From Verrucomicrobiota bacterium (GTDB taxonomy: Bacteria > Verrucomicrobiota > Verrucomicrobiia > Limisphaerales > UBA9464): DNA of 64,000 nucleotides. Under the pieces are notes generated by a model, which was given only the letters and a program-made list of their open reading frames with translations, had not been told where the DNA came from and did no database searches. Positions 651 through 60,147 of the stretch are shown here, in pieces. Each line of letters opens with the position of its first letter. Positions within the stretch are counted from its first letter, which is position 1. The stretch lies in contig CANGKZ010000005.1 in the NCBI GenBank assembly GCA_947454705.1, positions 128,616 through 192,615 on the forward strand. The letters are read 5' to 3'. The position numbers were made by a program, and so were the translations under genes.

Positions 651-674
651 CAACACGCGGCTTCCCACTTAAAC

Positions 675-1422: not shown

Positions 1423-1448
1423 GAGCGAAATAGAGGGAGGGAAAGCTT

Positions 1449-1582: not shown

Positions 1583-1610
1583 GTTTCCGCAGTCAATTCT
1601 CGTTGAGCGG

Positions 1611-2954: not shown

Positions 2955-2991
2955 AGGGGACCTGTGGGGAATTTCGTTGCATGACTGGGGA
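2955..2991 (+). promoter_or_regulatory. candidate MraZ operator: helically phased (A/T)GGGGA repeats upstream of mraZ
   Basis: AGGGGA at 2955, TGGGGA at 2965 and TGGGGA at 2986 are spaced 10 and 21 nt apart, about 115-150 nt upstream of the mraZ ATG. E. coli MraZ binds phased TGGGN repeats in its own promoter. Confidence 0.3.
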
Positions 2992-3103
2992 TTTCAGTGG
3001 CAAAAAGGGTCCAGCGGGGAAGTGATGTCATTTTATGTCGGAACCCATGGTAGATCTCGATGCGCAGGCCGCCCCAGTGGCGGCGGGTGCACCGTCGTCT
3101 TCC

Positions 3104-3562: not shown

Positions 3563-3571
3563 ACCATAACC

Positions 3572-4033: not shown

Positions 4034-4050
4034 ACCCGGGTGCCGCATGC

Positions 4051-27195: not shown

Positions 27196-27463
27196 TTTTC
27201 AGGTTAAAGGGCGCGGGCGAAGTTCGCTCGATCCAAAGCAGTAGGGGACTACCGCAGTCCAAGATCTGGCGGAGTTCGCCGCGCGGGCAATCGAGTCGCG
27301 ACAGCGTCGTGGAGTGCGCCAGTCCTCTGGCGCTTTCGGATGCGGGACGATTTTCAAAGCGCCCACTCCTCTGCGTCTCCGCGTCTCTGCGGTTTGCCTC
27401 CGGAATCGTCGTGCATTCGTGGGGGTCAAAAAACGAAGAAGGGTTGAAGCGAGCCCTCGGCCC

Positions 27464-43813: not shown

Positions 43814-46800
43814 TCAATGCGTCACCAGGTATTTCAGGAGCTCGATCCGTTCCCGTTCACCGAGGGCTTCCAGGATTCCTTCCGGCATCAGGGAACGATC
43901 GCTGGTTTCGCGGTGTTTGATGTCGGACTTCGGGATCACCACGGTTTCGGTGAGCGTCTTCAACGAGACGGCGCTGGGCGTCTCGGACGCAACGAGACCG
44001 TTCCACGCGGTGCCGTCGCGCGTCTCGATCAACGTGAGCTGGAAGTCCGCGCCGATGACCGCGTTCGGATCCACGATGTTCTCCAGATAATACCGGATGC
44101 CATGCTGACCGGCTCCGGTGAGCTCGGGGCCGATCCGTGCTCCGTCATTCCCGATCCGGTGACACTGCGAGCAAAGGCGCACGAAGTGATTGCGTCCCTC
44201 GCGGTCCGAGTAGGCCCAGAGCGGGGCTTCGTCGAAGGTCTTCTGCAGCGAGGCAATCAAGGCCTGCTTGTCGGCCGGGGTTTTCTGGATGCGTCCCCAC
44301 AGCGACGTCACCTGGCGGTCCACCTCGGGATCGTGCAGCGCGGTGAGTTGTCGAATTTGGAACGCGCTGATCAGGTCGCGCTTGAGCCGGCCCGCCGCGA
44401 TTTCTCCGAGCAGGGCACGTGCGGAGGCCGCACGACGTGTGAGCGTGGCCAGGGCGAGTTCGCGTTCCGATTGCGGGAGCGTTCCAATGCGGCCCAGCAG
44501 GGCGCGCGGAATCGAAGGATCATCGAACCGTGCCAGCAACGGAATCGTCGCGGGACGGAACGCTGGATCGTCGAGCAACTGCACGAACAAGGGCAGCGAT
44601 GTGGAATCCGACGCGCGGCTCAGCACGGCGAATGCGTGTCGGCGATCCGCCTCGGCCGCGTTGCGATCGGCCAGCACGGTGCGCAGACGCGGGAAGCCCG
44701 ACGCATCGCCGAACACCGCTGCGAGCCGCTCGGCGCTGCGACGCACCGAGGCATCCGTGTGCGTGTAGAGCGATTTGGAAACGCGCTTCCACGCCTCGGG
44801 CATGGGCAGATTGGCCCGCGGTTCCATCGCCAGCCAGAGACCCGCCAAACGACGCGGCAAATCCGCGGCCGGCGTGGACGCCAGCAGCGCGATCTCCCGG
44901 TTCAACGCCACTCCTTCCTGCGAGGCGGCGTACCAATGAATCCAATCGGCCAGTTGCGTCAGGGGCGATGCCGTCGCGAGCTTGAGCGCGCGTTCCGGGT
45001 TCTTCGGGAGCAGGGTTGCGATTCCATCCCACAGCAGACCGGGAAGGTTTCGATCCTCCGCATCTTCGCCGTGCCAGCTCAACGATTCCGCCAGGCTCCA
45101 CGCTGTGGTTTCTGGAACGCGTTGGATTGCCGATGCGAGGGCGCGTCGCACCACCGGCGAGGGATCCGCATCGGCCAATTTCTTGAAGCGCGTCAGCGCG
45201 GCCGTCGATGCCTGGCGTCGATCCGTAGTGAGCTGAATCGTCCACGCGCGGACGAACTCATCCCGGTCGGCAAGCCCGCGCGCGACCGTCGAATCCATGC
45301 CGCTGCCGTCCAGCCCGCGATCGCGACCGGCCGTGCGATGCAGCGTCCACAGCGCCTGCAGCCGTTGGCGGGAATCGGGATCTGACTCCAGCGTCTTCTG
45401 CAGTTTCTGCAACGCGGCGGGATCCAGCGCGCGTTCCGCGGCGCGCTCCTGGAGCAATCGCGCCGCCGTGCGCGCGTACCACGCGTTGCGATGCGTGAAG
45501 AGGCCCACGAGATCGGCATCGGATTTGTCCGACAGATTCACCGACACCGGACGGAACCCGGCCTGCCATTCCATGCGGTACATCCGGCCGTTGCTGCGGT
45601 CCCACCGTTCCACATTGGGATTGTGGCAATGCTGCGGATCCACCCAGTCGATGAAATACACCGCGCCATCCGGACCGGTCTGCAAATCCACGGCCACGTA
45701 ACTCGGATCCGTGCAGAACAGCTGATCCTTGCCCGCGTGGACCGTCTCAAATCCGGAACCAAGCCGGCGGTTGATCTGCTGGTTGATCTGATGTCCTCCG
45801 AGGTTGTGGGTGAACAAATGCCCGCGGAATTCCTCCGGCCAGTTGTCGCCCTGATAAATCAAGGTGCCCACGTGGGAATGTCCGCCGTAGATGGCATCGC
45901 TCCCGGGCGCGCCTGCGCCGCCGGCGCCGTGGTCGTAGCGGGCCGATGCGAGCAGGTAATTCTTGAACCCAGGGAATTCCTTGGGCGGATTGGCGATGAT
46001 GAACGGTGCGTAATTCGCATTCGCCTGATTCCAATAATGACCGCCCTGAATCACGTGCGTGGTGCATCCGCCGCCCCAGTAGCTGCGGCAGTGGGTCATG
46101 AACAACTGGCCCTGGTCGTCGTAGTCCAACCCCCACGGATTGCTTCCCCCGCTGGCGAACACCTCGAACTCGTGTCGAACGGGATGATACCGCCACACGC
46201 CCGCGCGGAGTTCCGTGCGTTGCGAATCGGGCGCGCCGGGGCGTCCGATGTGGGCGAGGTTGAACACGCCCTGGTTTCCGTAGAGCCAGCCATCGGGTCC
46301 CCAGAGAAAACTGTTTAGGCACTCGTGGGTGTCCTGGTATCCGAAGCCATCGAGCAACACCTGCGGAGGTCCATCTGGCACGTCGTTGTGATCGCGATCG
46401 GCGAGGAAGAGCAGCTGCGGCGCGGCCCCGATCCACACACCGCCGAAGCCCACTTCCAATCCGCTCACCAGGTTCAATCCCTCGGCAAACACCTTCCGCG
46501 TCTCGAACCGCCCGTCCCCATCGCGGTCCTCGAGGATCACGATGCGGTCCTGTCCTTGACCCTCGGGGCGCTTCGACGGATAGCTCATGGCTTCGGCGAT
46601 CCAGATCCGTCCGCGCTCATCCCAGGCAAACGCCACCGGCTGCTGCAGCGCGGGTTCCGACGCGACCAGTTCCACTTTGAAGCCCGGCGGAACATGCATC
46701 GCGGCGACCGTTTTCTCGGCGGGGGAGTTGGCTGGCCGATCCACCGGATTCGGCCGTAGATGTCGCAATACCGGACTCGATTGCAGACGCGACGCGCTGG

Positions 46801-46942
46801 GGAGCGGGTCCTCGGCGCGAAGCGTGGAGTGGAACGCCCCATTGGACAGCACAAGCGCGGCCGCTGCGATGGCGACGACGGGAACGCGGGTGCGCGAGGA
46901 AGCCTGGGGCTGGGTCTTGGTGATGCGCGTGCTCTGGCTCAT
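43814..46942 (-). CDS. PVC-type heme-binding CxxCH protein (membrane-bound dehydrogenase-like beta-propeller, HEAT-like repeats, C-terminal cytochrome c)
   Basis: The ~1040-aa protein has an N-terminal signal/TM, a glucose/sorbosone-dehydrogenase-like region (IAEAMSYP...ILEDRDGDGRFE), a long helical-repeat middle and a C-terminal LCSQCHRIG heme motif. A GTG at 46984 is an alternative start. Confidence 0.75.
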   Translation of the reverse strand: MSQSTRITKTQPQASSRTRVPVVAIAAAALVLSNGAFHSTLRAEDPLPSASRLQSSPVLRHLRPNPVDRPANSPAEKTVAAMHVPPGFKVELVASEPALQQPVAFAWDERGRIWIAEAMSYPSKRPEGQGQDRIVILEDRDGDGRFETRKVFAEGLNLVSGLEVGFGGVWIGAAPQLLFLADRDHNDVPDGPPQVLLDGFGYQDTHECLNSFLWGPDGWLYGNQGVFNLAHIGRPGAPDSQRTELRAGVWRYHPVRHEFEVFASGGSNPWGLDYDDQGQLFMTHCRSYWGGGCTTHVIQGGHYWNQANANYAPFIIANPPKEFPGFKNYLLASARYDHGAGGAGAPGSDAIYGGHSHVGTLIYQGDNWPEEFRGHLFTHNLGGHQINQQINRRLGSGFETVHAGKDQLFCTDPSYVAVDLQTGPDGAVYFIDWVDPQHCHNPNVERWDRSNGRMYRMEWQAGFRPVSVNLSDKSDADLVGLFTHRNAWYARTAARLLQERAAERALDPAALQKLQKTLESDPDSRQRLQALWTLHRTAGRDRGLDGSGMDSTVARGLADRDEFVRAWTIQLTTDRRQASTAALTRFKKLADADPSPVVRRALASAIQRVPETTAWSLAESLSWHGEDAEDRNLPGLLWDGIATLLPKNPERALKLATASPLTQLADWIHWYAASQEGVALNREIALLASTPAADLPRRLAGLWLAMEPRANLPMPEAWKRVSKSLYTHTDASVRRSAERLAAVFGDASGFPRLRTVLADRNAAEADRRHAFAVLSRASDSTSLPLFVQLLDDPAFRPATIPLLARFDDPSIPRALLGRIGTLPQSERELALATLTRRAASARALLGEIAAGRLKRDLISAFQIRQLTALHDPEVDRQVTSLWGRIQKTPADKQALIASLQKTFDEAPLWAYSDREGRNHFVRLCSQCHRIGNDGARIGPELTGAGQHGIRYYLENIVDPNAVIGADFQLTLIETRDGTAWNGLVASETPSAVSLKTLTETVVIPKSDIKHRETSDRSLMPEGILEALGERERIELLKYLVTH

Positions 46943-47184
46943 GGCAAAACGTGATTCAACGTTCCGATCGTTCGTTTCACCCACGGCATCCGTTTCAATT
47001 CAGGTACGTCACCTTACTGTCGGATACCGAAACAGAAGCCGGGATCAACGAGTTGGAATGCGCCAAATACAACCGCCCCCGGGAAAGAAGTCGAACGAGA
47101 TCACGCGCGCCCGCCGGCGCCGGGCGCGCGAAGGCAAAAGGAGAAGGGAGAAAAGCAAAGGGCTCGATCGAAGCGAGAATCTCG

Positions 47185-47245: not shown

Positions 47246-47520
47246 ATGAAAAAGCCAATCTCCCGTAGCAAGAGCTCGCAGTCCCTTTCGACCGCCGTTT
47301 CCAACTGGAAGGATCCCATTGAATGCAAACTGCCAGACTTGCGGATGGCATTGTGTCTGCTTTTCTCAATCGGTCCATTCCCACGCGCAGGGGCATGTCT
47401 TCGGCGCTTCAGGCTTTTGGAAGAATTTCGCAGCCGGGAACTGTGGACGGGGCTTGAGGGCGGAAGAAATCCGTCGTAGTGCCGATCACGCAGGCCCGCA
47501 GAGTGGAGGTAAAATTCAGC

Positions 47521-50500
47521 ATGAACCGAACTCCTTCGTCGAACAGGTCGGTCGCCAAGAGCCTGCTTCTTGTCGCGATCGTCACGGGGTTTTTGCCGTG
47601 CGCCGCCGGCGATGGAGGGGGCTCGTTGATCGCCTGGGGTGAGAATTCCCTGGGGCAAACCCTCGTTCCTGAAAATGCCCGGGAAGGCGTAGTCGCGGTG
47701 GCCCCGGGCATAAGCCACGTGTTGGCGCTGATGGGCGATGGAAGCCTTCGGAGTTGGGGGGATGACCGTGCCGGGCAGGTGTCGATTCCGCCGGAGGCTC
47801 GGACGGGAGTGATTTCGATGGCGGCCGGGCGCGCGCACAGCCTGGCGGTGACCAGGGACCATCGAGTCCTGGCCTGGGGAGCCAATGAGTTTCAACAGAT
47901 CGAGATTCCGTCGATCGCCGGCTGGGGAGACACCTTTGCCGTGGCCGCCGGGGCCAATCACAGCCTCCTGATTCGAAGCGACGGCGATGTGGAGGCGTGG
48001 GGGGATAATCGCGAGGGACAGGCCACGGTGCCGGTCGCTGCCTATTCGCGGGTGGTGGCGGTGGCGGCGTCGGGAAACCACAACCTCGCGTTGCGCACCG
48101 ACGGAACCGTGGTGGCGTGGGGAGGATCCAACCCCGCATTGGGGAAGATTCCCGCGGGAGCCCTCAGTCAGGTCGTTGCGGTGGCTGCGGGGCCCGATTG
48201 CAACGCCGCATTGCGATCCACCGGAGAGGTTGTGGTGTGGGGAAATCCAGCACTGAGCGGAACCAACGTTCCCGCTGGCGCAAAAAAAGGCGTCGTGGCG
48301 ATTGCCGTGGGCGATCGGCAGGTGTTTGCGTTGAAAAAAGACGGCTCGGTTCTCGCCTGGGGCGGGAATGATTCCGGGCAGATCTCCGTTCCGCTGGTGC
48401 CCGAGCAAGGGGTCCGTTCGCTTGCCTCGGCGGGGGGATATGGGTTGGCCATCGTCACCAACCGCGTCGCGCCTCCCCTGCTTCCGCCGACCCTGCTCGG
48501 TCAGTCGCGGGCTCTCACCCTTCAGGCCCGCGGAGTCGCCTCCTTTACGGTTCAGGCCACCGGCAGGAATCTGCGATACCGATGGAAAAAAGATGGAAAA
48601 GAACTGCCCGCGGCAAACGGATCGACGCTCAACTGTGGACCGCTGCGCGACGTCGATGTCGGTATTTATCAGGCGATCGTGGAAAATGATGCGGGGCGTG
48701 TGACCTCGGATCCGATTCAGCTGACCGTATCTCCAGGGGAAGGCGAACTGCTCAAGGGTGCGGCGGCCCAGTGGGGATTTGGATGGACTCTGGAGGCGGT
48801 GCCCGATGAGGTCCGACAGGGAGTCGTAGCCCTGGGCGCTGGCACCGACTTCAACATGGCCCTTCGTTCGGATGGCCGGGTGATGACGTGGACCGCCGAT
48901 GGAATCGGAACCCCGTGGCTCAAACTTCCGCCCGAGGCCACTACCAACGTGTTGGCGATTTCCGTGTTTGGCCGAAAGGGATTGGCGATCACGTCGGATG
49001 AAAAATTGATCCGCTGGAGTGATCCGCGGGAAACCCCGAGGACCGCACAATCCCGAACGGTGGGAAAGGTGGTGGCGATCGCTGGGGACAATCTGGTTCT
49101 CCAGCAAAATGGCGCCGCCGCCTGGGCCGATGACTTTGGGGAGGATTTCGTCGTCCCCGAGTCCGCGCAGTCGGATGTCGTGGCGATCGCCTCTAGCCAG
49201 TCCTTCATGTGCGCGTTGCGCGCGGATCGTCGGGTGGTTTGCTGGAAGGATGGAACCGGGACCGAGATTCCAGTGCCCGCAGGGATTCAGGGACGAACCG
49301 TGCAAATTGGTGCCGGAAACTATTTCGGTGCCGCCCTGTTGGAGGACGGATCCGTGGTCACTTGGGGCGACAATCGATTCGGGCAGTTGGCCATTCCCCT
49401 CGAAGCGACCCGTGGGGTGAAAGAGATGTGGGTAGGAGCCGATGTGATCTTCGTCCGCCGCGAGGATGGATCCATCTTTTCGTGGGGTCTGAACAACACC
49501 GGCCAACTCCAGATCCCGAGCGCGCTTGGCAGTTCCATTCGTTCCATTACTCCAGGCCAATTCCGGACCCTTGCCCTGGTCGAGCCGACACCCCCAACGG
49601 TCGTGGCGGGCCCAGTCTCCCAGGATTTGATCGCCGGCAGCGCGACTGAACTTAAAGCGCAATACCGTGGGTACCCTCTCCGATATCAATGGTTTCGGAA
49701 TGGGATTCCGATCGCTGGCGCAACCGCAGCGAGCCTCAATCTTCCAAATCTTTCGGCCATGGAGTCGGGGGATTACACGGTGATCGCGTCGAATCAATTG
49801 GGCACCGCCTCCCATTTCATACCTGCCGTTCTGAAGGTGCGCGCGGGACGTAGTTCCCTTCTGGTTTGTGACCACACGGCGACCCAATTCGAGCCCGTGC
49901 CTGTGGAGGCGCAAAATGATATCGTCGAGTTTGCGTCCGGATTGACTCATCGCGTTGCTCTCAACCAAAGCGGACAAGTTTTTGCGTGGGGTGGATCCAA
50001 CGAATTGGGGCAGCGATCGATTCCCCTGGGAGCCGAACTCGGTGCAGCTCGGATCGCTGCCGGGGCGAATCACACGTTGCTTCTGGGAAACAATGGCGCG
50101 GTGGTTGCCTGGGGCGACAACCGGAGGGGACAATGCAATGTGCCCCTTGAGGCCCGGACGGGAGTCCGATCCATTGCAGCGGTGGGAGACACATCTTATG
50201 CGGTCGTAGGCTCCGGGAGAGTCGTCGTTTGGGGGGATCAGGAATTCGGGGAAGGGAACATTCCATCCGGTGCGTTGACGGGCGTGAAACAGGTGACCGT
50301 GGTTCCCGGACGCGCAATTGCGTTGCGGACCGACGGTGTGGCCTTCGCCTGGGGCGGTAAGGCAAATCCCACCGTGAAAATTCCGGCAGAAATCCAAGGG
50401 AAGATTCGGGCGACCGCCTTGACCGCGTATTATTGCTACGCGGTTTTGTTGGATGATTCATTGGTAGGGTGGGAATGGGGGCTGTCGCAACTCCCGGGGC

Positions 50501-50946
50501 CGGGGGAATACATACCCGGACTGGCGGCTGTCCGTGCAAACGTGGCGACGATCTCCTCGGCAATCTGGGGAGGAGGCTTTGATACCGTCTTTGTCGTGAG
50601 AAACGACGGGATCGTCGATCGGTGGCGGGATCTCGGCTTTGAATCGAGTCGCCTTCCCTTCAACCGCGATGCCGTCATTCGCTCCGCGACCGTGGGGCCC
50701 TCGGTGGTTGGATTGATCACCGATACCCCTGTGACTCTTGAATGGGCGAAGCAATCCGCCGGGATGCAAGTCTCGTGGTCCAGCCTGCTGGAGACCGCGC
50801 GTTTGCAATCTACATCGAGTCTGAATGCCCAGTCGGGATGGGTGGATGTCACCCAACCGCAGAAAGAAGTGGGCGGACGACAAACGATCTCCGTACCACT
50901 CGATTCAGCCTCCCCGATTCGTTGGTTTAGGCTAATAACTCATTAA
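47521..50946 (+). CDS. giant secreted RCC1-repeat (beta-propeller) protein with interspersed Ig (I-set-like) domains
   Basis: A signal peptide is followed by many RCC1 units (AWGENSLGQ, SWGDDRAGQ, AWGANEFQQ, AWGDNREGQ, AWGGNDSGQ, TWGDNRFGQ, AWGGSNELGQ, AWGDNRRGQ). There are two Ig-like segments (LRYRWKKDGKEL...DVGIYQAIVENDAG and LRYQWFRNGIPI...SGDYTVIASNQLG). Confidence 0.85.
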   Translation: MNRTPSSNRSVAKSLLLVAIVTGFLPCAAGDGGGSLIAWGENSLGQTLVPENAREGVVAVAPGISHVLALMGDGSLRSWGDDRAGQVSIPPEARTGVISMAAGRAHSLAVTRDHRVLAWGANEFQQIEIPSIAGWGDTFAVAAGANHSLLIRSDGDVEAWGDNREGQATVPVAAYSRVVAVAASGNHNLALRTDGTVVAWGGSNPALGKIPAGALSQVVAVAAGPDCNAALRSTGEVVVWGNPALSGTNVPAGAKKGVVAIAVGDRQVFALKKDGSVLAWGGNDSGQISVPLVPEQGVRSLASAGGYGLAIVTNRVAPPLLPPTLLGQSRALTLQARGVASFTVQATGRNLRYRWKKDGKELPAANGSTLNCGPLRDVDVGIYQAIVENDAGRVTSDPIQLTVSPGEGELLKGAAAQWGFGWTLEAVPDEVRQGVVALGAGTDFNMALRSDGRVMTWTADGIGTPWLKLPPEATTNVLAISVFGRKGLAITSDEKLIRWSDPRETPRTAQSRTVGKVVAIAGDNLVLQQNGAAAWADDFGEDFVVPESAQSDVVAIASSQSFMCALRADRRVVCWKDGTGTEIPVPAGIQGRTVQIGAGNYFGAALLEDGSVVTWGDNRFGQLAIPLEATRGVKEMWVGADVIFVRREDGSIFSWGLNNTGQLQIPSALGSSIRSITPGQFRTLALVEPTPPTVVAGPVSQDLIAGSATELKAQYRGYPLRYQWFRNGIPIAGATAASLNLPNLSAMESGDYTVIASNQLGTASHFIPAVLKVRAGRSSLLVCDHTATQFEPVPVEAQNDIVEFASGLTHRVALNQSGQVFAWGGSNELGQRSIPLGAELGAARIAAGANHTLLLGNNGAVVAWGDNRRGQCNVPLEARTGVRSIAAVGDTSYAVVGSGRVVVWGDQEFGEGNIPSGALTGVKQVTVVPGRAIALRTDGVAFAWGGKANPTVKIPAEIQGKIRATALTAYYCYAVLLDDSLVGWEWGLSQLPGPGEYIPGLAAVRANVATISSAIWGGGFDTVFVVRNDGIVDRWRDLGFESSRLPFNRDAVIRSATVGPSVVGLITDTPVTLEWAKQSAGMQVSWSSLLETARLQSTSSLNAQSGWVDVTQPQKEVGGRQTISVPLDSASPIRWFRLITH

Positions 50947-50972: not shown

Positions 50973-51215
50973 CTATTCCTTAACAGCCGGAGCTGGCGGA
51001 GGGTCTACGGGCTCCGCCCAGAGGATTCTTCGGAGGAGTCCTTCCGGGTCCTTGGCTCCCAGCTGGTTCACGATCGCGGACAATTTGTGCAAATGCTCGT
51101 CGCGGCGGGCGGTGATCCGCAGGCGGAACTGCTCATAAGTCGCGCCGAGCCCTACCAATGTCATGACCTTCTCTGTTTTCGTCACTTCAGGGTCGTTGCG
51201 AGTCGTATCCATCAT
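50973..51215 (-). pseudogene. truncated paralog (C-terminal domain only) of the 52698..53384 gene
   Basis: 80 codons from the first ATG align with the C-terminus of the 52698..53384 product. The in-frame similarity continues upstream (ETNRLLAS vs ECNRMLAT) to the stop of the preceding gene, with no ATG, GTG or TTG available. It may still be expressed as an 80-aa protein. Confidence 0.45.
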
Positions 51216-51300
51216 CGAGGAGAGATGCACGGCGTCGGAAGCGAGCAGCCGATTCGTCTCGGCCCCCGCCCGGCCGGTGGTAATCCGTTTCCTCCGACGC

Positions 51301-52458
51301 CTAGGATCGGCGTTTCCGAAGTGCGAAGAGTCCCAGCGCGGCGACCGAAATGAGTGCGATGGCCCACTGGAACGGACGCCGGCGGGTGGCTTCGGGCAGG
51401 GGATTGCCCGTCTCCCGAAGCGCAGCTTCCTGCTCGAGCGACTTCTTGGCGCTGTGCCGCACTCGGAACAGGAGGGAGCGATCATCCTTTTGCAGCCATT
51501 GATTCGTGGTCCGGTATTCGAGTGCCGCGATTCCCTGATCGCCGAAGCGCCGATCCTCCATTTCGTAAATTCCCGCCGTTAGTTCCGGCAGGGGAAGAAT
51601 CGCGGGAATGGCGGCGACGTTGGTCACCGTGCAGGTGAACTCGAACGCGGTGAGCAGATTCGATGACGAGTTGGGATTCAACGTGTCGGGGATAAAGCAC
51701 TGGAATCGGAACTCCGACGGACTGGATCCCTTCTTCCCGTACACCCACCGCCCCAGTCCCGAGGTGTATCCCGAGCTGAACGGAGCCTTGTGTTTCTTGA
51801 CCTGCAGACGCCCTTGGGGATCCCGCACGCCGTAGGTTCCCGGGCTGGTCAGTCGGAGCTCCTCGGGGCGCCCGTCGTGATCCTGTTTGAGGGAATACTG
51901 GGGAAACAGGGCCGGAGTCTCGAACTCATCGAGCTCCACCGAAAACAGGCTGCGGGCGGGTCCGCTGGGATCCCGGAAGGTGCAGCCCGAAAGGAAAGCG
52001 AACCAAAGATGTTGGAGCTCCTGCTCGCGCGAATTCGGGTAGGTGCCCGGATACACGGCGGCCTTGCCCGATGCGAGCGAAGCCGCGACGGAGGAATACT
52101 TGTCGCCCCAGGCCGCTTTGACGGCGACGGGATTCAGGAGGTCCACCCGGAAGATATTGGTCCCGTCGCAGCCGAACTCCTTATCGGTCACGAGCACATT
52201 CGGATTGCCGACATTGTCAGGATCCCGAAGGAAAACCTTCCACTGGCACCCATCCAACTGCACCCGAAACTCGTTGGTCCGCCCCACGCCGGGCGTCGCC
52301 TCCTGCGCCGGAACGAGAAACCGGTACACTCCGCTGACTTCAGTCGCCGCCGCCAGCTCCCCCGAGGACCGTACCGTCAAAATCAAAAGGAGCGCGAGGA
52401 TTGGGAACAGGCCGCAAAAGCAAATGCGACAGCGAAGGGGGAAGTTCTCACGTTTCAT
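51301..52458 (-). CDS. hypothetical secreted protein with a C-terminal TM anchor and basic tail (module 1, gene B1)
   Basis: The ATG at 52458 gives 385 aa with signal peptide MKRENFPLRCRICFCGLFPILALLLILTV. The body looks beta-rich. The C-terminus reads LPEATRRRPFQWAIALISVAALGLFALRKRRS. I recognise no family. Confidence 0.6.
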   Translation of the reverse strand: MKRENFPLRCRICFCGLFPILALLLILTVRSSGELAAATEVSGVYRFLVPAQEATPGVGRTNEFRVQLDGCQWKVFLRDPDNVGNPNVLVTDKEFGCDGTNIFRVDLLNPVAVKAAWGDKYSSVAASLASGKAAVYPGTYPNSREQELQHLWFAFLSGCTFRDPSGPARSLFSVELDEFETPALFPQYSLKQDHDGRPEELRLTSPGTYGVRDPQGRLQVKKHKAPFSSGYTSGLGRWVYGKKGSSPSEFRFQCFIPDTLNPNSSSNLLTAFEFTCTVTNVAAIPAILPLPELTAGIYEMEDRRFGDQGIAALEYRTTNQWLQKDDRSLLFRVRHSAKKSLEQEAALRETGNPLPEATRRRPFQWAIALISVAALGLFALRKRRS

Positions 52459-52584
52459 GCTCAAATGGAGAGGCCGACCGTCAACGACTGCCCTCGCACC
52501 TTGGTTGTTCCGGTGTCGACGGGAGCAGTCATAGGCAGCAGCGAATTGAATCATCCCATTGTTAAACGAAGCGCCTCCCGCCGC

Positions 52585-52604
52585 GCAAAGCCCATGTTTG
52601 GTAC
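52585..52604 (-). promoter_or_regulatory. conserved 20-nt leader motif (minus strand GTACCAAACATGGGCTTTGC), copy upstream of B1
   Basis: It is identical to 54315..54334. It lies ~130 nt upstream of the B1 ATG in the 240-nt gap after the A2 stop. Possible -35 TTGCGC and -10 TTTAAC elements lie immediately downstream on the minus strand. Confidence 0.45.
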
Positions 52605-52697
52605 AGCGGAGGCGAGGGCTGCGTTCCAGGGAGTAAACAACCGCAGAGAGACGTCCTGAGGTGACTCGGCACAAGGTCCGAGAGATTTCGCGGCCAG

Positions 52698-53384
52698 CTA
52701 TTCCGTCGGGTCGGGCGGGGGATTCAAGGGTTCTGCTCGAAGGACGTTTCGAAGGAGGCCCTCTGGATCGCTGGTGGCGAGTTGATTCAGAATTGAGGTC
52801 AATTCCTGAAGATGCTCTTCACGCTGTTTAGTGATCTTGAGGCGGAACGGTTCGAAGTTCGCGGAGAGGCTGTCGATGGTCATTGCCTTCTCGGCAAGTG
52901 GCTTTTCGGGGTCATGGCGGACGTCATCAAACAGCGCTGAGAGTCTCTCCGCATGTGTCGCGAGCATCCGGTTGCATTCGGACACGGTGAAGAGCTGCTT
53001 TAGGATCGGGCGCAGCTGTGCTTTGGAAACATCCGCGGTGATCCCGTTGTTGGTTAGGATTCGATAAACCATCAAGAACTCTGGAATCGGGTGCTCGATG
53101 AGCATCTCACCATCCCGAATTGCCGCCTGGGTGGCGGCAGATTGGGTCCCGGTTACCTGGACTGCTTGCTTGGTGAATCGCGATGGTTCTTTCGCGGTTG
53201 AGGCGCGAGCTGGAGTCGTCGGGAGAATTGAATTTGTAGTTTGCGGAGACGAGCTAGCATTTCCCAACTGCTGGCTGATGCGGGAGGGGACTATTAGAGC
53301 TGCGATCCCGAGAATTAAAAGGACCGCAAGCCCTCGAAGTGAAATCTTCCGTTTTCCTGGTTCAGGAGAGGTGCTATTTGACAT
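52698..53384 (-). CDS. hypothetical membrane-anchored helical protein (module 2, gene A2)
   Basis: The 228-aa protein has an N-terminal TM helix (LRGLAVLLILGIAALIV). The C-terminal ~95 aa are paralogous to 50973..51215. GC content is reduced (hand counts of 48-55%). I recognise no family. Confidence 0.6.
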   Translation of the reverse strand: MSNSTSPEPGKRKISLRGLAVLLILGIAALIVPSRISQQLGNASSSPQTTNSILPTTPARASTAKEPSRFTKQAVQVTGTQSAATQAAIRDGEMLIEHPIPEFLMVYRILTNNGITADVSKAQLRPILKQLFTVSECNRMLATHAERLSALFDDVRHDPEKPLAEKAMTIDSLSANFEPFRLKITKQREEHLQELTSILNQLATSDPEGLLRNVLRAEPLNPPPDPTE

Positions 53385-54147
53385 AACCAATCGTGATGCT
53401 TGGAAGAAGATCCTGAGAAGTTGAATTAAACGAACCCGCGCCGATAAAACTCACTGTTGAAAAGGTCATCGGTGTTATTTGGGTTGTGTAACTCCAAAGT
53501 CCGTTGGTGGAAAAAAGACTACAAGAGGTATTGAAAACATCGGTGGCCGCTTCCAATTTCACAATTACGGAAGTGGGATATTTTAGTCTATATTGGGCGT
53601 ACTTAGCGGCATCCACTCTGATTTTGAGCTTTGTTGGGGTAACGACGAGAGACTTTTCCATCACGGGTTTTCCAGTGGCATCTCGGGTTACGCAAGTCCA
53701 GTTGAGTCGGCCTATGTCGTGATAGAACGGATTAGTGTCCACGGGAGATGTTGTAGCGCCATTTTCATTTTCCGTGGTTACATAGCTCTCCCAGATATCG
53801 GATGTGGGGTTTGCTGAGTTTAAATAGTGGTGCTTCGTTATTGTGACCTGTGAGGCCGGGACACCATTATTATAGAAAATTGTCTTGTGCACCTCCAAGT
53901 AGTCTTGGACGCAAACGGATGCGGTAAGAATTGAGTAATCTTGTGCGATGGAGACGCCAAGCTTGATGGCCTCTGTTGCAGCGCCGATCACGGCATCCTT
54001 GGAAGCTAGAACTGGATTTGCGAAGCGGTCGGGAGGCGGGAGTTCGGCGGCGAGTTTGGCTTCGAGGATCGAAACCGCCGGAATCAGGAGCGCGATGGCG
54101 ATGGTAACGGTTCTGCAGTTCCGCTGTAGGGGCTTTGTGTTCGTCAT
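53374..54147 (-). CDS. hypothetical secreted Thr/Ser/Asn-rich protein (module 2, gene B2) in a low-GC islet
   Basis: The ATG at 54147 gives 257 aa with a signal/TM (TVTIAIALLIPAVSILEA). Hand counts of three 60-nt lines gave 40-43% GC, against above 60% in the flanks. Its stop overlaps the A2 start by 11 nt. I recognise no family. Confidence 0.55.
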   Translation of the reverse strand: MTNTKPLQRNCRTVTIAIALLIPAVSILEAKLAAELPPPDRFANPVLASKDAVIGAATEAIKLGVSIAQDYSILTASVCVQDYLEVHKTIFYNNGVPASQVTITKHHYLNSANPTSDIWESYVTTENENGATTSPVDTNPFYHDIGRLNWTCVTRDATGKPVMEKSLVVTPTKLKIRVDAAKYAQYRLKYPTSVIVKLEAATDVFNTSCSLFSTNGLWSYTTQITPMTFSTVSFIGAGSFNSTSQDLLPSITIGYVK

Positions 54148-54314
54148 GGAGGAGGTGGTGGTGGGTGGGTGGTTTCTAGATGTCGGATAATCCTGGAGCG
54201 GCACTTGGATTCAGGTTTCTGCCAGCGTCGAAGTTGAACGGGCTTGTTGGGGCTTTGGCGCTGAAGTGTCGTTTCAGAAAGCATTTCGTTTATACCCGAA
54301 GAATCGAACGCCCG

Positions 54315-54334
54315 GCAAAGCCCATGTTTGGTAC
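54315..54334 (-). promoter_or_regulatory. conserved 20-nt leader motif (minus strand GTACCAAACATGGGCTTTGC), copy upstream of B2
   Basis: It is identical to 52585..52604 and lies ~170 nt upstream of the B2 ATG. A minus-strand TTGCCG, an 18-nt spacer and TATAAA (54289-54294) follow. Confidence 0.45.
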
Positions 54335-54567
54335 GTTTCGGCGGTTCCGCGTGAGCCCGGAGGGGTGGGTTTCTACGGGGCCACGCTTAGGGTGTTGCCG
54401 GAAGGCGGAGGCCGAGTTCCAGCGGGAAAGACCGGAGTTGTTCAGCGGCACATCGAGCCTGATGCGGGGAGGTGCTGAACGCGGCCGGGGCGATGGAAAA
54501 GAGCGAGCGAGCCGCATTTTTGGAGGCCGGTCGCGGGAGTGCTTGCTGGATTCCGCGGGGAGGGGGA

Positions 54568-54600
54568 GGGGGGCCTGAGTGGTGCCAGCGGGAGGAATCG
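54568..54600 (-). repeat. direct repeat of the tRNA(CAT) 3' end plus its downstream flank (att-like site)
   Basis: GGGGGGCCTGAGTGGTGCCAGCGGGAGGAATCG matches 60061..60093 (GGGAGGCTTGAGTGGTGCCAGCGGGAGGAATCG) at 31 of 33 positions. The 25-nt core is identical and the orientation is the same. Confidence 0.7.
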
Positions 54601-55029
54601 CGGAAGGTTCAAACGCGCCAACGTCAGCTCCGCGGGGTTTTAGTTTTCCACGACTCGACGGTTTTTCGCCGATCCGTTCACTGCCAAACTGAGGGGTCGC
54701 TCCGGTTGGAACGACATGGAGTTATTGGATGGTGGATAGCCGGATGGGTCTCACGGAATGCTTGCAGTTCGGCTTCGCCCCGTACTTTTGCTAAACTTTG
54801 CCGGGAAGCTGTCGATGCAGGGATAGGGTGCGTGCGACCTGGTCGCGGGTGCTGTCCATTTCGATCGGGACTCTGGGACTGAAAGAATTGGGCGAATCCC
54901 GAATCCTGGAACCGGCCACGGTGCCGCGCCGAGACGAAGAGGAGAACTCCGGGAACACTTGGCGGGGTGCCTCCGGATCCCGGCAATTGTGTTGGAGCGG
55001 GGCTTCCGCAACCCTGTCCGGATTATTCC

Positions 55030-58000
55030 ATGCCCGTATTCCCAGAGCGCCATTGCCAAATCGCTTACCGGATTCTTCGACTTGCCTGTCTGCTGGCTTG
55101 GATTCCGGCGAGTCTGCTGGCTGAGGGCAATCGCTCCACCCTGACCAATCTGGCCCAGGTGCGGGCGCTCTCCGTGAAGGAAGCTTCCAAGGCGCACCCG
55201 GTTTCCGTGGTGGCCATCATCTCGGGCAACGGGGCCATCCGGTTTCTTCATGACGCGACGGGCAGCTGCTATCTGCCCTGCGATGCGCTTTCCAAGTATC
55301 CGATTGGCGCGCGGGTGCAGGTGGATGGCGTGACCGATCCGGGCGACTTCTCCCCCTTCATCAAGGGCACCAATGGCCCCGGGGTTCGGCCGCCCCGCCT
55401 GACCATTCTAGGCACCGGACCGCTTCCCCCGGCGACCCCGGTGTCCGGTCGGGAATTGCGGCATGCGCAGGTGGATTGCGCGCGACTGGCATTGACCGGT
55501 GTCGTGCGGACGGTCGATCGCCAGCCCGCCGACGATGCAGTCCTCGCCAGCGTCGATGTGGACGGATTCCGAATCGATGTCAGCTGCACCGGTATTGACG
55601 GTCCTGCCGGTCGCCTCACCCGGGGCAGCGTCATCCGGGTGGAGGGCACCTACAGCTGTGCGTTCAACCTGCGGCGACAGCTGTGGACAGGCGGCTTTCT
55701 CTACACCACCAGCGGTCAGGTGCGCTTGCTGGAGCAGCCCTCGACCACGGAGTTCTCCCTTCCGCCGATTGCCATCAACGACATCGGGCGATTTTCCCCC
55801 AATAGCCGGTCGGATCTGATTCATATTTCCGGAACGGTCACCGCCGTTCGTGAAGGGGAGGGACTCTTTGTCGAAGATGAAACCGGTTCCTGCTGGGTGG
55901 AGATTCCGGTGCGAAAGGAATATCGCGTGGGGGAGAAAGTCGATGCGGTGGGGTTTCCAGTGCTGAAGCGATCCACGACTACGCTGGAGGATGTGGTTCT
56001 CCGGCATGCGGGCCTTGGCACTCTGCCACCCCCGCAGCCGATCGCGCAGGTGGCCGAGGTGCTGGGGAATTTTGCATCCGGAAGCCCGCTTGATCACGAC
56101 GGGCGCCGTGTCCGCATCCGCGCACACGTGGACAATTATCTCCGCCTACCCAAAGGGATTCTGATCCTGCTCTCCGAGCTGCCCCATGAATTCGCCGGGG
56201 AACTGGGCTCGACGGATATAGAGTCCCTTCCCAGGCGGTTTCCGCCCGGATCGCTGGTGGATATGACCGGGGTGCTGCGGGTCGAACACGACGGTAGCTT
56301 CCGCATCCGGGGTGCCCATCTGCTCATTGCCTCCCCGGACGAGGTGGTCCTGGTCGCTCCGCCGCCGCCGAAGGAGCGGGACCGTTGGATGCTTTTGCTC
56401 AAGGGAGCCGGCGGGATTCTCGCGGTAATGCTGGCCCTGCTCGGTCTGACGTTGAAGAACCGCCGACAATTGCGGATGCGGCTGGTCGAGCAACAGAACA
56501 CGGCGCTGGCATTGAAGGACCGGGAACGGGACCTGTCGAAGATGGTCGAGGCTCGAACCCGCGAACTGCAATCGCACCGGAATTACATCTCGTGCGTCCT
56601 CGATCTCCTGCCAATTCCGCTGTATGTGCGGAACAACGACGGTGAGATCCAGGTGGTCAATACCGCGCTTGCCGAGTGCCTGGGTTTGGGGGGACGCAAC
56701 GTCATCGGAACCCGCGTGACAAACCTCGCCGGCAACTTCCCCATGTTCGCTGAACTGTTCCGGGATACCGGCGAGCCACTCACTCCCGGCGCCGAGACCC
56801 GGATTCATGATGTAAGAATCACCTCAAGTCAGGGCGCGATATTGTGGTATCAGGTGGTGGAATCCACAGTCACCGGCAGCGAAGGCCAGTTGATCCGCCT
56901 CGGCATGGCGATCGACGTGACCGATCGAAAGTCCCATGCGGAGGCTCTGCAGCGTGCCAGAGAGGCTTCCGAGGCCGCCGCCCGTGCCAAATCCATGTTT
57001 GTCGCCAACATGAGCCACGAGATCCGCACCCCGATGAACGGGGTCATTGGCATGCTCAATTTGATGGCCGACACGCCCCTGGACGAGGAGCAGGCGGAGT
57101 TCATCCGCACAGCCAGCAGCAGCGCCGAGGCGCTTCTGTGCGTGGTGGATGACATTCTCGATTTCTCCAAAATGGAGGCGGGAAAACTCCAGCTGGAATG
57201 CGCCCCGTTCGATCTCCTGGAATGCCTGCGCGGTGTCCACGATCTGCTCGTGGAAAAGGCCGCCTTTAAGGGCGTGCACCTGTCCGTGTTGCTGGAGCCT
57301 GACGTCCCCATGGAGCTCCGAGGCGACAGCGGACGCCTGCGCCAGGTCCTGCTGAATCTCGTCGGAAACGCGATCAAGTTTACCCAGGCGGGGTCGGTCA
57401 CCGTGCGGGTGGAGATCGAGGAATTGACGACGGCCGACATCGTGCTGCGGTTCCTGGTCTCCGACACCGGAATCGGAATGTCGGACGACGTGGTTCGTTC
57501 GCTGTTCCAGCCCTTTTATCAGGCGGATTCCTCCTCCACGCGGCGATATGGAGGGACCGGGCTCGGGCTTACCATCAGCAAGAAGCTGATCGAATGCATG
57601 AGCGGCAGCATTGAGGTGCGAAGTCGCAAAGGAAAGGGCAGCGACTTCCGGTTCACGGCCCGCTTCAATGTTCACGCGAGCGCCGAGAGTTCACAGAAAC
57701 CCGGCGGAATCCCGGAGGCGTCCTATGTGGTGTCTTCAGGAAACCCCGAGCTCGCGCAGCATCTGATCGATCATCTGAGCGAGTATCAGCCGACGCGCGT
57801 TCGCGTGATTTCTCCGCAGCACCTCGGTGCCACGGCCGCGGCCCTGGACCCGAACACGATTGTGCTGCTCGATGTCCCACCTCTCGCCAAATCCCTGCCC
57901 ACCCTGCTTCCGGAACTCGTCAACCGCGCCGGGAGGCAACCCCCACGCACCCTGCTGCTTCTGGACGGGCTCAGTCTCCATTTGGGCAACCAGCTGCGCG

Positions 58001-58557
58001 AGTTCCCGTCCACGACGGTGCTGCGGAAACCACTTTCCTTCCGGGAGCTGGTTGCCGCTCTCCAGCGGTTGAGCACGGTCGCCGCATCACCCAGGATGGA
58101 ATCCGGCATCACCCCCGCGGCGGTGCCGCCTCCCGACCCGCTGCCCCGGGAGTCGCAGGGGAAGATCCTGGTGGTCGAAGATCATCCGGTGAACCAACAA
58201 CTCCTGGCCACGCTGTTGCGCAAGGCGGGCTATGCCGTGGTCACGGTACCCGATGGCGTGGCGGCCCTCGGCGCCCTGAGCGAGGGGCCGTTCGATCTGG
58301 TGCTCATGGACTGCCAGCTTCCCCGCATGGACGGACTGGAAGCCACGCGGCGCATCCGGGCCGGCGAAACGGGCACGCCGCAGATCCCGATCTTGGGAGT
58401 TTCAGCCAGCGCCATGCAGCTCGATCGAGACGCATGTGCGCGCGCCGGAATGGACGGATTTGTCAGCAAACCGGTCCAAACCGAGGCCTTGCTCCGGCTC
58501 ATCCGTTCGCATCTGAATCCGACCGGGGCCAACACCTCGGACGGCAGTCAGGCCTGA
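55030..58557 (+). CDS. hybrid sensor histidine kinase / response regulator with a large N-terminal extracytoplasmic domain
   Basis: A signal-like helix and ~440 aa of unassigned sequence precede a TM helix (WMLLLKGAGGILAVMLALLGLTL). A coiled coil, a PAS-like region, HisKA (FVANMSHEIRTPMNGVIGM), HATPase_c (GTGLGLTISKKL) and a C-terminal REC (KILVVEDHPVNQQLL...LVLMDCQLPRMDG) follow. Confidence 0.9.
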   Translation: MPVFPERHCQIAYRILRLACLLAWIPASLLAEGNRSTLTNLAQVRALSVKEASKAHPVSVVAIISGNGAIRFLHDATGSCYLPCDALSKYPIGARVQVDGVTDPGDFSPFIKGTNGPGVRPPRLTILGTGPLPPATPVSGRELRHAQVDCARLALTGVVRTVDRQPADDAVLASVDVDGFRIDVSCTGIDGPAGRLTRGSVIRVEGTYSCAFNLRRQLWTGGFLYTTSGQVRLLEQPSTTEFSLPPIAINDIGRFSPNSRSDLIHISGTVTAVREGEGLFVEDETGSCWVEIPVRKEYRVGEKVDAVGFPVLKRSTTTLEDVVLRHAGLGTLPPPQPIAQVAEVLGNFASGSPLDHDGRRVRIRAHVDNYLRLPKGILILLSELPHEFAGELGSTDIESLPRRFPPGSLVDMTGVLRVEHDGSFRIRGAHLLIASPDEVVLVAPPPPKERDRWMLLLKGAGGILAVMLALLGLTLKNRRQLRMRLVEQQNTALALKDRERDLSKMVEARTRELQSHRNYISCVLDLLPIPLYVRNNDGEIQVVNTALAECLGLGGRNVIGTRVTNLAGNFPMFAELFRDTGEPLTPGAETRIHDVRITSSQGAILWYQVVESTVTGSEGQLIRLGMAIDVTDRKSHAEALQRAREASEAAARAKSMFVANMSHEIRTPMNGVIGMLNLMADTPLDEEQAEFIRTASSSAEALLCVVDDILDFSKMEAGKLQLECAPFDLLECLRGVHDLLVEKAAFKGVHLSVLLEPDVPMELRGDSGRLRQVLLNLVGNAIKFTQAGSVTVRVEIEELTTADIVLRFLVSDTGIGMSDDVVRSLFQPFYQADSSSTRRYGGTGLGLTISKKLIECMSGSIEVRSRKGKGSDFRFTARFNVHASAESSQKPGGIPEASYVVSSGNPELAQHLIDHLSEYQPTRVRVISPQHLGATAAALDPNTIVLLDVPPLAKSLPTLLPELVNRAGRQPPRTLLLLDGLSLHLGNQLREFPSTTVLRKPLSFRELVAALQRLSTVAASPRMESGITPAAVPPPDPLPRESQGKILVVEDHPVNQQLLATLLRKAGYAVVTVPDGVAALGALSEGPFDLVLMDCQLPRMDGLEATRRIRAGETGTPQIPILGVSASAMQLDRDACARAGMDGFVSKPVQTEALLRLIRSHLNPTGANTSDGSQA

Positions 58558-59666
58558 ACAGCCCCGCTGGCCACGCGGCTCTCCACCACACGGGCCACCG
58601 AGTGTGCGAGGTTGGGAATCGAGTCCACCTCGCATTGCGGTCCCAACAGGGAGATGGCGGCGCGTGGCATCGATTCCGCCACCGCGGTTGCCGGATCCTG
58701 GGCAAATACCCTGCCACCCCGTGCCACGATCGCCTGCGCGCCCCGGGCCCCATCGACCCCCAATCCCGTAAGCACGACCCCGACGGAGCTCGCCCCGAAT
58801 CCCTGCGCCATCGTCTGGAACAACGGGGCGGCGGACGGGCGGACGTAGTTGATCTCCGGCGAATTCCGGATCTCGATTTTGCGCCCGCCTTCCGCCACGC
58901 ACAGATGGCGATCGCCGGGGGACAGGTACACCTTTCCGGGTTCAATCGTCTCGCCGTGCACCGCGATCGACACCGGCAGATCGGTCACCTTTGCCAGGGA
59001 ACCCACCATGTGGCGCTGCACCCAATCTGGACCATGCAGGACGATCAAATAGGCCGAACGACGCGACAGGGCACGCGCCTCCACGAATGCCTTGAGGGCC
59101 GGCGGACCGCCGGTGCTCGCCGCAATGCCGACCACCGAAAACGGGGCCATTGCTCCCGGCGGAGTTCCCTCACGCGCCCAGACGGGACGCTCGGGCGCCG
59201 GGGCGGCACTCAATCGAACCGGAGCTGCCGGTTCAGCACTGACCGGAGGCTGCGGGGCGGCGGAGACGGGTACCGCCGCGGGTGTCGGCACCGCCATGGT
59301 GGCCTTCCGACGGGCAAGTCCGCTGTTTAGCCGTTCCAGGAGCTCCACCGGACGCAGCGGTTTGCAAAGAAACTCGTCGGCGCCCGATTGGAGAGCGTGC
59401 AGGCGGGCCTCCTCCGAGCGGAGGGAGGTAAGGACCAACAGGACCGGATGGGGCTTGGGAAGGCGACGGATGGTGCGGACCAGCTCGATGCCATCCAGCT
59501 CGGGCATCATCCAATCCGTCACGACCGCATCGACCGGTGCCTTACTCAAAGCGTCCAGCGCCTCACGTCCATCGCGAACCACTGTCACTGCGTGCGCGCA
59601 ACGACGTAGGGTCACTGCGATGACGGTTGCACTCGCCCGATCGTCCTCTGCCACCAGAATGGTCAT
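58548..59666 (-). CDS. CheB-like protein-glutamate methylesterase with N-terminal receiver domain
   Basis: The REC domain is ILVAEDDRASA...AVVTDWMMPELDG, followed by a Pro/Ala linker. The CheB_methylest domain reads VVGIAASTGGPPAL...LIVLHG...YLSPGDRHL...VVLTGLGVDGARG, with Ser/His/Asp triad positions present by eye. Confidence 0.8.
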   Translation of the reverse strand: MTILVAEDDRASATVIAVTLRRCAHAVTVVRDGREALDALSKAPVDAVVTDWMMPELDGIELVRTIRRLPKPHPVLLVLTSLRSEEARLHALQSGADEFLCKPLRPVELLERLNSGLARRKATMAVPTPAAVPVSAAPQPPVSAEPAAPVRLSAAPAPERPVWAREGTPPGAMAPFSVVGIAASTGGPPALKAFVEARALSRRSAYLIVLHGPDWVQRHMVGSLAKVTDLPVSIAVHGETIEPGKVYLSPGDRHLCVAEGGRKIEIRNSPEINYVRPSAAPLFQTMAQGFGASSVGVVLTGLGVDGARGAQAIVARGGRVFAQDPATAVAESMPRAAISLLGPQCEVDSIPNLAHSVARVVESRVASGAVQA

Positions 59667-60060
59667 GAGCCTCGAAAAGTGTTTCCGCCTCGGTTTCGGA
59701 TCGGAGGCGGGTTGACGCGGAAGAGGGAATAATCCGGTTCTCGAAGGCCGATGTCGAGGGTCGACACTGCCGCGACGAACCCGTGCTTCCGCTTTCGTCC
59801 GGCGACCTTGGCTGTTTTCAAGACCCGCAAGACCAGCCCGGCTTTTGGAGACGGAAACGACTCAGCTAGGAGAGCGTTCGATTCGAGTGACCCGGAAGGG
59901 CGTTCAGAATGTCCTTCGATTGTTTGAGTTTCTGGATCGAATCCACCCAAACTGCCGTGAGGCTCGGGCAGGGTTGAACGAATGGCCTCTTGGTGCCGAA
60001 GAATGAGTTTTGGTCCTCAGTTCACGGCCGAGTTCGTTTTTGGCCGGGAAGGGAAGACGA

Positions 60061-60093
60061 GGGAGGCTTGAGTGGTGCCAGCGGGAGGAATCG
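60061..60093 (-). repeat. att-like repeat partner: 3' end of tRNA(CAT) plus 12 nt of downstream flank
   Basis: See 54568..54600. It covers the last 21 nt of the tRNA (including the encoded CCA) and the flank. Confidence 0.7.
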
Positions 60094-60147
60094 AACCTCC
60101 GACCAAGGGCTTATGAGTCCCCTGCTCTACCGCTGAGCTACGCTGGC
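60073..60147 (-). tRNA. tRNA with CAT anticodon (elongator tRNA-Met, or tRNA-Ile2 if lysidine-modified), CCA encoded
   Basis: The reverse complement GCCAGCG-TA-GCTC-AGCGGTA-GAGC-A-GGGGA-CTCATAA-GCCCT-TGGTC-GGAGG-TTCGATT-CCTCC-CGCTGGC-A-CCA folds by hand into a cloverleaf. The acceptor stem is a perfect 7 bp, with 4-bp D and 5-bp T stems. The G1-C72 pair argues against an initiator. Confidence 0.9.

Follow-up and report, generated by a model that had tools for sequence, protein, structure and literature searches.

The MafB/MafI locus of Neisseria is an effector-immunity locus in which the immunity genes also occur as tandem or orphan paralogs. Cmi and Pim, immunity proteins of the colicin M/pesticin type, are periplasmic proteins anchored in the membrane by their N-terminus. 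In the tandem immunity paralogs tipC and esaG, conserved 5' and 3' blocks have been found to recombine (PMC9484751). Here we describe a pair of genes, B2 and A2, in a stretch of 64,000 nucleotides (nt) from a member of the Verrucomicrobiota (assembly GCA_947454705.1, contig CANGKZ010000005.1, positions 128,616 to 192,615), which as a whole is referred to as the window and corresponds to sequence of a 256-kb ENA contig (ERZ27263692 k141_231776). The pair is a two-gene operon, encoding the Sec-exported protein B2 followed by the single-pass membrane protein A2, and its relatives are exchanged as a cassette at a conserved site. A model that had seen only the letters of the DNA and its open reading frames (ORFs) had reported four consecutive ORFs on the minus strand, B2, A2, B1 and A1', and all four are present (Table 1). 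This original prediction arranged them as two B-then-A units, a matter to which we return below.

The B-A gene pair across lineages

A homolog of B is found immediately 5' of A in eight divergent lineages of Verrucomicrobia, the window included, and the two genes either overlap by 4-20 nt or are separated by a 12-nt gap. The overlap is 11 nt in the window, in L002/L003, where B is 86% identical to B2, and in L009 (53%). It amounts to 20 nt in L012/L013 (about 40%) and to 4 nt in L015 (33%), which is the same locus as L018 and belongs to the Verrucomicrobia metagenome-assembled genome (MAG) GCA_025354845.1. The gap is present in L017, from the Verrucomicrobia MAG VK_bin-2510, and at about the same length, with Ns within it, in L011 (38%); in L014 a B fragment lies 5' of A. 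The original prediction had envisaged a conserved A partner combined with a variable cargo. Inspection of the neighbours showed instead that A is preceded by homologs of the B family, and B2-type proteins are conserved together with A down to 33-38% identity (L009, L011, L012, L014, L015 and L017). The pair is conserved within a small, uncultured clade of Verrucomicrobia, mostly from fresh water; judging by the names of the records, lakes or ponds appear to be the source of most of the metagenomic relatives.

No B lacks an A wherever downstream sequence exists, in a small sample of about 10 loci. Only A multiplies, as tandem, solo and truncated copies. Two A genes stand in tandem in L002 and in its sister contig fGcSo9J7, A occurs without B in L001 and in L007/L008, where it adjoins a PrlF/PIN module, and truncated copies are represented by A1' and P0021. 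A further A, P0022, adjoins transposases, with only 63 nt of upstream sequence. In a neighbour-joining tree the A1 type and the A2 type form sister clades, which indicates that the duplication of A is specific to the lineage of the window. The A2 type has been duplicated again in L002 to give the copies Aa and Ab, which show 72% identity in the part that aligns with A1'.

The A family is very rare. When 1.84 billion representatives (clusters at 50% identity) were searched exhaustively with a profile, only 17 clusters were obtained at E<1e-10; a word-indexed search with A returned six relatives, and no further loci were found when the A profile was run against genome contigs. The full-length members, of about 200-235 amino acids (aa), have one architecture in common: a short basic N-tail, one transmembrane (TM) helix, a low-complexity linker of 45-70 aa and a domain of about 145 aa with the C-terminal motif (L)LxxQ/EPxxPPPDP. 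A few members are fragmentary. A2 is bitopic, with a disordered linker of about 45 aa rich in S/T/P/Q and an all-helical domain of about 145 aa terminating in EPxxPPPDP. From the positive-inside rule, the helical domain is predicted to lie in the periplasm. AlphaFold2 (AF2) modelled residues 80-228 with a predicted local distance difference test score (pLDDT) >90, as five helices (83-97, 101-112, 117-156, 163-200 and 207-215) arranged around a long hairpin. In the PDB, Foldseek matched this model to nothing but designed or generic helical bundles (best E 0.12), there was no match at E<=0.001 in the PDB or BFVD, and nothing meaningful was found in the latter.

B2 carries a Sec signal with a conserved A|E (Ala|Glu) cleavage site, and the processed protein is about 225 aa in length, with two conserved cysteines. 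The alignment of the B family shows conserved NPVLA, DYSxL, HY, WE, FxH, PT, C152, C209 and D..P..I elements, the two cysteines being invariant. The Sec signal is the sole targeting signal, no outer-membrane targeting or lipobox signal being seen in the family alignment, and divergence is uniform along the length of the sequence. A hand-built B pattern matched two genomes, both of them Verrucomicrobia MAGs (GCA_025354845.1 and VK_bin-2510), and a search of metagenome contigs with the B profile found nothing. Neither B2 nor the B-family profile matched anything in Pfam, NCBIfam, PADLOC, PHROG or the sequences of the PDB, and the A, B and B1 profiles likewise gave nothing against PDB sequences. 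For the four products and each sequence in the A and B alignments, Pfam, NCBIfam, PADLOC and PHROGs yielded nothing above noise, the best matches lying far below the cut-offs (e.g. TPR_SYO1 with 15.8 bits against a threshold of 27). B and A are two new protein families, absent from these curated libraries, and the statement of the original prediction that none of the four proteins belongs to a recognisable family was thus borne out. Relatives of A and B were not found in the viral contigs of IMG/VR.

Allele replacement and base composition

The DUF7133/cytochrome-c protein adjacent to the pair is 95% identical between L011 and L017, with a synonymous divergence (dS) of 0.50 and a ratio of nonsynonymous to synonymous divergence (dN/dS) of 0.04, whereas B is only 56% identical, with saturated dS, and A 59%. 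In the DNA identity profile, values of 50-65% give way to >80% in the final ~40 codons of A. The flanks of L011 and L015 are 85-87% identical, B 42% and A 31%. Between the window and L002, dS differs among adjacent genes (B2 0.63, A2 0.26, B1 0.08), and 97% identity is found in the flank on the tRNA side. Here A2 is a mosaic relative to Ab of L002, its first ~135-180 nt being 68-84% identical and the remainder 88-100%. Given the contrast in identity between flanks and pair, and the mosaics of A, B-A behaves as an exchangeable cassette: one allele replaces another through homologous recombination at a conserved chromosomal site, and the breakpoints lie in the conserved ends of A. Regardless of the function of the proteins, this is a clean natural case of cassette-like allele replacement. 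The dN/dS is 0.13 for B2 against L002 and about 0.2 for A2, and values of 0.13-0.21 for the two genes indicate purifying selection.

The mean guanine-plus-cytosine (GC) content of the window is 62.9%. B2 has a GC of 48.6%, with 53% at third codon positions (GC3), z=-4.6 and a 700-nt minimum of 46.3%; the corresponding values of A2 are a GC of 54.7%, a GC3 of 60% and z=-2.5, and those of B1, GC 61.7% and GC3 75%, are host-like. In 700-nt windows, with a cut-off at the mean minus 2.5 standard deviations, 52.7-53.8 kb is the sole strong low-GC outlier across the 64 kb; a second window, at 2601 (54.9% GC), falls barely below the cut-off. The original prediction was therefore right about B2-A2 as a compositional outlier, but had underestimated the GC of B2, which it counted by hand at 40-43%.

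GC and GC3 of the pair lie below those of the flanks in every lineage (for L012, the B value alone, GC 48%). B has a GC of 50% and a GC3 of 56% in L011, where the flank has 64% and 75%, and again 50% and 56% in L009, next to a flagellin gene with 60% and 82%; in L015 the values are 55% and 61% for B, and 63-64.5% and 72-78% for the flanks. Since B-A is low in GC in all lineages, its composition does not indicate that B2-A2 is young. The proposal of a younger B2-A2 unit next to an ameliorated B1-A1' unit was accordingly abandoned, every B-A pair being low in GC and B1 an unrelated orphan with host-like GC. The low GC of B-A is a stable trait of the family and not a mark of recent acquisition, and calls for caution in GC-based island calling.

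A1', B1 and the neighbourhood of the pair

The frame of A1' is 52% identical to A2 (44 of 84 residues, E=5e-30), and the paralogy that the original prediction had seen by eye is significant. About 96 of ~230 codons are retained in A1', which has neither start, TM helix nor linker and has lost the first third of the helical domain. A full-length A1 (P0006, 5545-6237, 230 aa) adjoins an RCC1-repeat gene at the same position in L001, with neither B nor B1 upstream. The loss of the N-terminal TM part, already noted from the letters, is in this way confirmed by a full-length ortholog. The dN/dS of 0.56 between A1' and A1 of L001 indicates relaxed constraint; at the DNA level, identity is complete over the final 45 nt and 46-73% over the remainder. 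Additional substitutions and one indel are found in the truncated variant P0021.

The A-like reading frame is open from the B1 stop to position 50973. The similarity to A was thought to extend all the way up to that stop; it begins in fact only at about 51263, and the filler between the two matches nothing. By blastn, the homology with L016 stops near 51344, in the 3' end of B1, and that with L001 begins at 51255, in mid-gene. These breaks at the B1/A1' junction, together with the non-homologous filler, indicate that A1' is a 3' remnant from a rearrangement. A1' is probably a pseudogene of an A1-type paralog.

B1 encodes a lineage-specific orphan protein, secreted and membrane-anchored and unrelated to the B family. 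Its only matches are itself and variants of >90% identity. The protein starts with a signal peptide and ends in a TM helix followed by an RKRRS tail (...LPEATRRRPFQW-AIALISVAALGLFAL-RKRRS), and its dN/dS of 0.17-0.32 indicates purifying selection on a real gene. The possibility that B1 is a diverged B was rejected, the best BLASTP match to B2 having E=2.4 and hhalign giving a probability of 0.3 against the B profile; on this point the original prediction, which saw no resemblance between B1 and B2, was correct. A PEP-CTERM signal was considered for the C-terminus but is not supported, with no NCBIfam match at E<=1 and a basic stretch between the PE motif and the TM helix.

In L016, B1 follows A2 as in the window, and is itself followed by a Cys-rich protein of 129 aa and a MauE-like gene. 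B1 is no partner of A, and adjoins A1' as the result of a rearrangement in which A1 lost its 5' part. The gene orders in L016 and L001 and the break in homology at the junction argue against the second of the two B-then-A units.

The interval between B1 and A1 is variable between strains. The Cys-rich protein of L016 is secreted and the MauE-like protein a membrane protein (1580-2490), and L001 has at 528-4981 a different MauE-like gene, a prepilin-type N-terminal-methylation protein, a GT1 glycosyltransferase and a small Cys-rich ORF of 94 aa, all of 46-47% GC. These genes may represent modules of a small Cys-rich peptide and a disulfide-related MauE protein.

An exact 20-nt repeat, GTACCAAACATGGGCTTTGC, which the original prediction had overlooked, is found before both B2 and B1. 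It occurs twice in the window and had 0 matches in 100 shuffles. In the element upstream of B2 the box is accompanied by a TTGCCG-type -35 and a -10-like TATAAA (in ...TTCTTCGGGTATAAAC), and an arrangement resembling TTGCxx...TAnAAn follows both copies. The box is invariant before B in L002, L009 and L010, even though the identity of B drops to 53% (about 65% for the coding sequence); before B1, it is invariant in L016 and has one mismatch in L002. It is absent from the distant clade, and a scan of JGI metagenome contigs for the exact sequence found nothing. As a strict sigma-70 scan called no promoter, with terminators at chance level, we only infer that the box is part of a promoter with a regulator site, through which B2-A2 and B1 would be co-regulated. 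Two further candidates in the conserved leader of B2, about 400 nt in length, were rejected: a small ORF, whose frames and stops vary among the relatives, and a structured RNA, the consensus fold of three distinct sequences reaching just -6 kcal/mol, which is no support. Rfam gave no match on 50.5-55.2 kb.

The leader of B2 is bounded by one of two direct 43-nt repeats that include the 3' end of tRNA-Met and are 88% identical; an intact tRNA-Met is found at this place in L002. The repeats bracket about 5.45 kb (54601-60050) that is missing from L002, where the tRNA-Met abuts the B2 leader, and L009 shares the tRNA fragment and ~37 nt beyond it. The bracketed segment codes for nothing but a hybrid histidine kinase and a CheB-like response regulator, without integrase or recombinase, and none of B2, A2, B1 and A1' is recombinase-like. 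The segment looks like an integrase-less insertion/excision polymorphism at tRNA-Met. The location beside a tRNA-derived repeat, which the original prediction had noted, is confirmed, and the region linked to tRNA-Met is variable: the relatives differ in the genes that they carry between tRNA-Met and the RCC1 gene.

The RCC1-repeat gene is convergent with A1', and its DNA is 94% identical in L001. A DUF7133/cytochrome-c gene follows B-A in L011 (7528-10647) and L017 (2366-5506). Synteny with the DUF7133 gene of the window was considered and rejected, as the identity of only ~29% points to a paralog and not to orthology. A hairpin element of about 114 nt (…CAGAGGACTGGCGCACTCCACGACGCTGTCGCG…GGACTGCGGTAGTCC…), present once in the window, forms with 82% identity the spacer between the tandem A genes of L002 (3011-3124), and was also found in L003 (1371-1470) and L004 (1-37). 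It is probably a dispersed intergenic repeat.

Table 1. Features of the window discussed in the text, with positions counted from its first nucleotide.
Feature	Position	Strand	Remarks
B2	53374..54147	-	ORF of 257 aa
A2	52698..53384	-	ORF of 228 aa; start overlaps the B2 stop (ATGTCAAATAG), ATG inside the last B2 codons
B1	51301..52458	-	ORF of 385 aa
Junction filler	51264..51300	-	37 nt; no counterpart in L016 or L001
A1'	50973..51263	-	A-homologous remnant; longest ATG-initiated ORF 50973-51215, 80 aa
Promoter-like element of B2	54279..54334	-	20-nt box at 54315-54334, 187 nt upstream of B2
Promoter-like element of B1	52549..52604	-	Second copy of the box (52585-52604); distance to the B1 ATG 146 nt
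tRNA-Met 3'-end repeat	54558-54600		Boundary of the B2 leader
tRNA-Met 3'-end repeat	60051-60093		
tRNA-Met	60073-60147	-	
Hybrid histidine kinase	54967-58557	+	
CheB-like regulator	58548-59666	-	
RCC1-repeat/immunoglobulin (Ig) protein	47479-50946	+	1155 aa, secreted; ~20 RCC1-type repeats and Ig domains
DUF7133/HEAT protein	43814-46984	-	
Hairpin element of ~114 nt	27224-27337		

Interpretation and comparison with known systems

We tentatively read B as a Sec-exported effector and A as a membrane-tethered periplasmic immunity or binding protein, with orphan and decayed copies of the immunity gene besides, and favour this reading without great confidence. It draws on the order of B then A, the duplication of A only, the hypervariability, the breakpoints in A and the purifying selection, as well as on the low GC of the whole pair, the signal peptide of B, the confident model of the A ectodomain, the lineage-specific duplication and the analogous recombination of tipC and esaG (PMC9484751). 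As in effector-immunity loci, the downstream gene is small and co-inherited, extra and orphan copies of A are found, and no B is without A. The accessory or conflict-type flavour that the original prediction had suspected is strengthened by the hypervariability at a conserved site, the recombination mosaics and the duplicated, solo and truncated A genes.

According to the effector-immunity reading, B would be exported through the periplasm of the producer, and could be an enzyme with conserved His/Glu/Asp and one disulfide. A would be the cognate binding or immunity protein, its ratio to B being fixed by translational coupling, and would neutralise B or the incoming B alleles of neighbours. 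Spare A genes would be orphan immunity genes that decay once they are no longer needed, as A1' may have done, and the shared box would place B2-A2 and B1 under one regulator. More doubtful is the wider proposal that B and A are new families of Sec-dependent antibacterial effectors and membrane-tethered immunity proteins, specific to freshwater Verrucomicrobia, whose cassettes are exchanged via the conserved ends of the immunity gene, whose spare and decaying copies record past encounters, and which may have in B1 a co-regulated effector-like orphan. If the effector-immunity reading is true, the pair would be the first described module of interbacterial antagonism in an abundant uncultured clade of freshwater Verrucomicrobia, and would extend the turnover of immunity genes by recombination to a new phylum. 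As the families are very rare, the general impact would be limited.

Several observations weigh against this reading. No toxin, enzyme or immunity family was recognised in B or A by sequence, nor in A by fold, and the AF2 model of B2, built from four sequences, has a pLDDT of 33 and provides no usable structure. No delivery apparatus or trafficking domain was identified, nor a linked secretion apparatus among the neighbours. B diverges evenly, unlike polymorphic toxins, which have a conserved N-terminus and a variable C-terminal toxin. B2 of the window is paired with an Ab-like A, whereas Aa is the copy adjacent to B in L002, and the charges of B and A are not consistently complementary.

Furthermore, a surface or envelope complex exposed to pressure from phages would also be consistent with the asymmetry and the hypervariability. 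B would then be a structural or adhesive protein of the periplasm or surface and A its inner-membrane anchor or chaperone, in a module under diversifying selection driven by phages or predators, the extra A genes being mere paralogs. Surface-antigen loci are typically hypervariable, low in GC and subject to allele replacement, B has no match to a catalytic family, the long disordered linker and helical hairpin domain of A would suit a tether, and the chromosomal position is conserved inside one clade. Such a module leaves unexplained the duplication of A only, the solo A genes near transposases and toxin-antitoxin modules and the A fragments; B, moreover, has no outer-membrane or lipobox signal, and a Sec-only periplasmic protein would not be exposed to phages. 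We consider an envelope module, the main rival, unlikely, although it deserves to be taken seriously. Neutral, horizontally acquired debris in the tRNA-Met-linked variable region, of no function to the host and low in GC through recent foreign origin, would account for the variable set of genes that separates tRNA-Met from the RCC1 gene, for the low GC, and for the position of the locus next to tRNA-Met or a 3' fragment of it in the window, L002 and L009. This is very improbable with B2 and A2 under purifying selection (dN/dS 0.13-0.21), the pair kept across lineages at 25-38% identity, the site in another clade conserved and not at a tRNA, the low GC persisting in all lineages and viral homologs missing from IMG/VR. 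The original prediction had favoured A as an adaptor pairing with interchangeable, non-homologous signal-peptide cargos, B2 and B1, the older unit being in decay. B1 and B2 are indeed both secreted and preceded by the same box, and B1 lies directly 5' of the A remnant. The adaptor model is largely refuted, and hardly credible any more, given the B family before A in all eight lineages, the Cys-rich protein and MauE-like gene after B1 in L016, the full-length A1 of L001 with neither B1 nor B upstream, the non-homologous filler at the junction and the restriction of B1 to relatives of >90% identity.

Among known periplasmic proteins, CpxP, Spy and ZraP resemble the A domain, which is small, acidic, all-alpha, predicted to be periplasmic and built on a long helical hairpin. 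Unlike these proteins, A is membrane-tethered and without LTxxQ motifs, and Foldseek against the PDB gave no natural protein at E<0.1. In its predicted topology A resembles Cmi and Pim: a short N-tail in the cytoplasm leads through a single TM helix to a periplasmic domain, which could intercept a protein acting in the periplasm. A is, however, about twice their size, with a long disordered linker, an all-helical hairpin domain and no detectable homology, and its B partner and gene order are unrelated to those of colicin loci.

From EsaD/EsaG and TelC/TipC, effector-immunity arrays of type VII secretion, the pair differs in having no relation, by sequence or fold, to known toxin or immunity families, and in the plain Sec signal and single uniform domain of B. 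Machinery of the type VI or type VII secretion systems (T6SS, T7SS) or of contact-dependent inhibition (CDI) is not linked to B-A, and there are at most 2-3 copies of A and no long arrays. In common with EsaD/EsaG and TelC/TipC, a secreted effector-like gene has a small cognate gene immediately after it; multiplication is confined to the downstream gene, whose conserved 5' and 3' blocks serve for recombination; alleles are swapped between strains and the composition is atypical. The families of the B-A pair are new, at a locus of a familiar kind.

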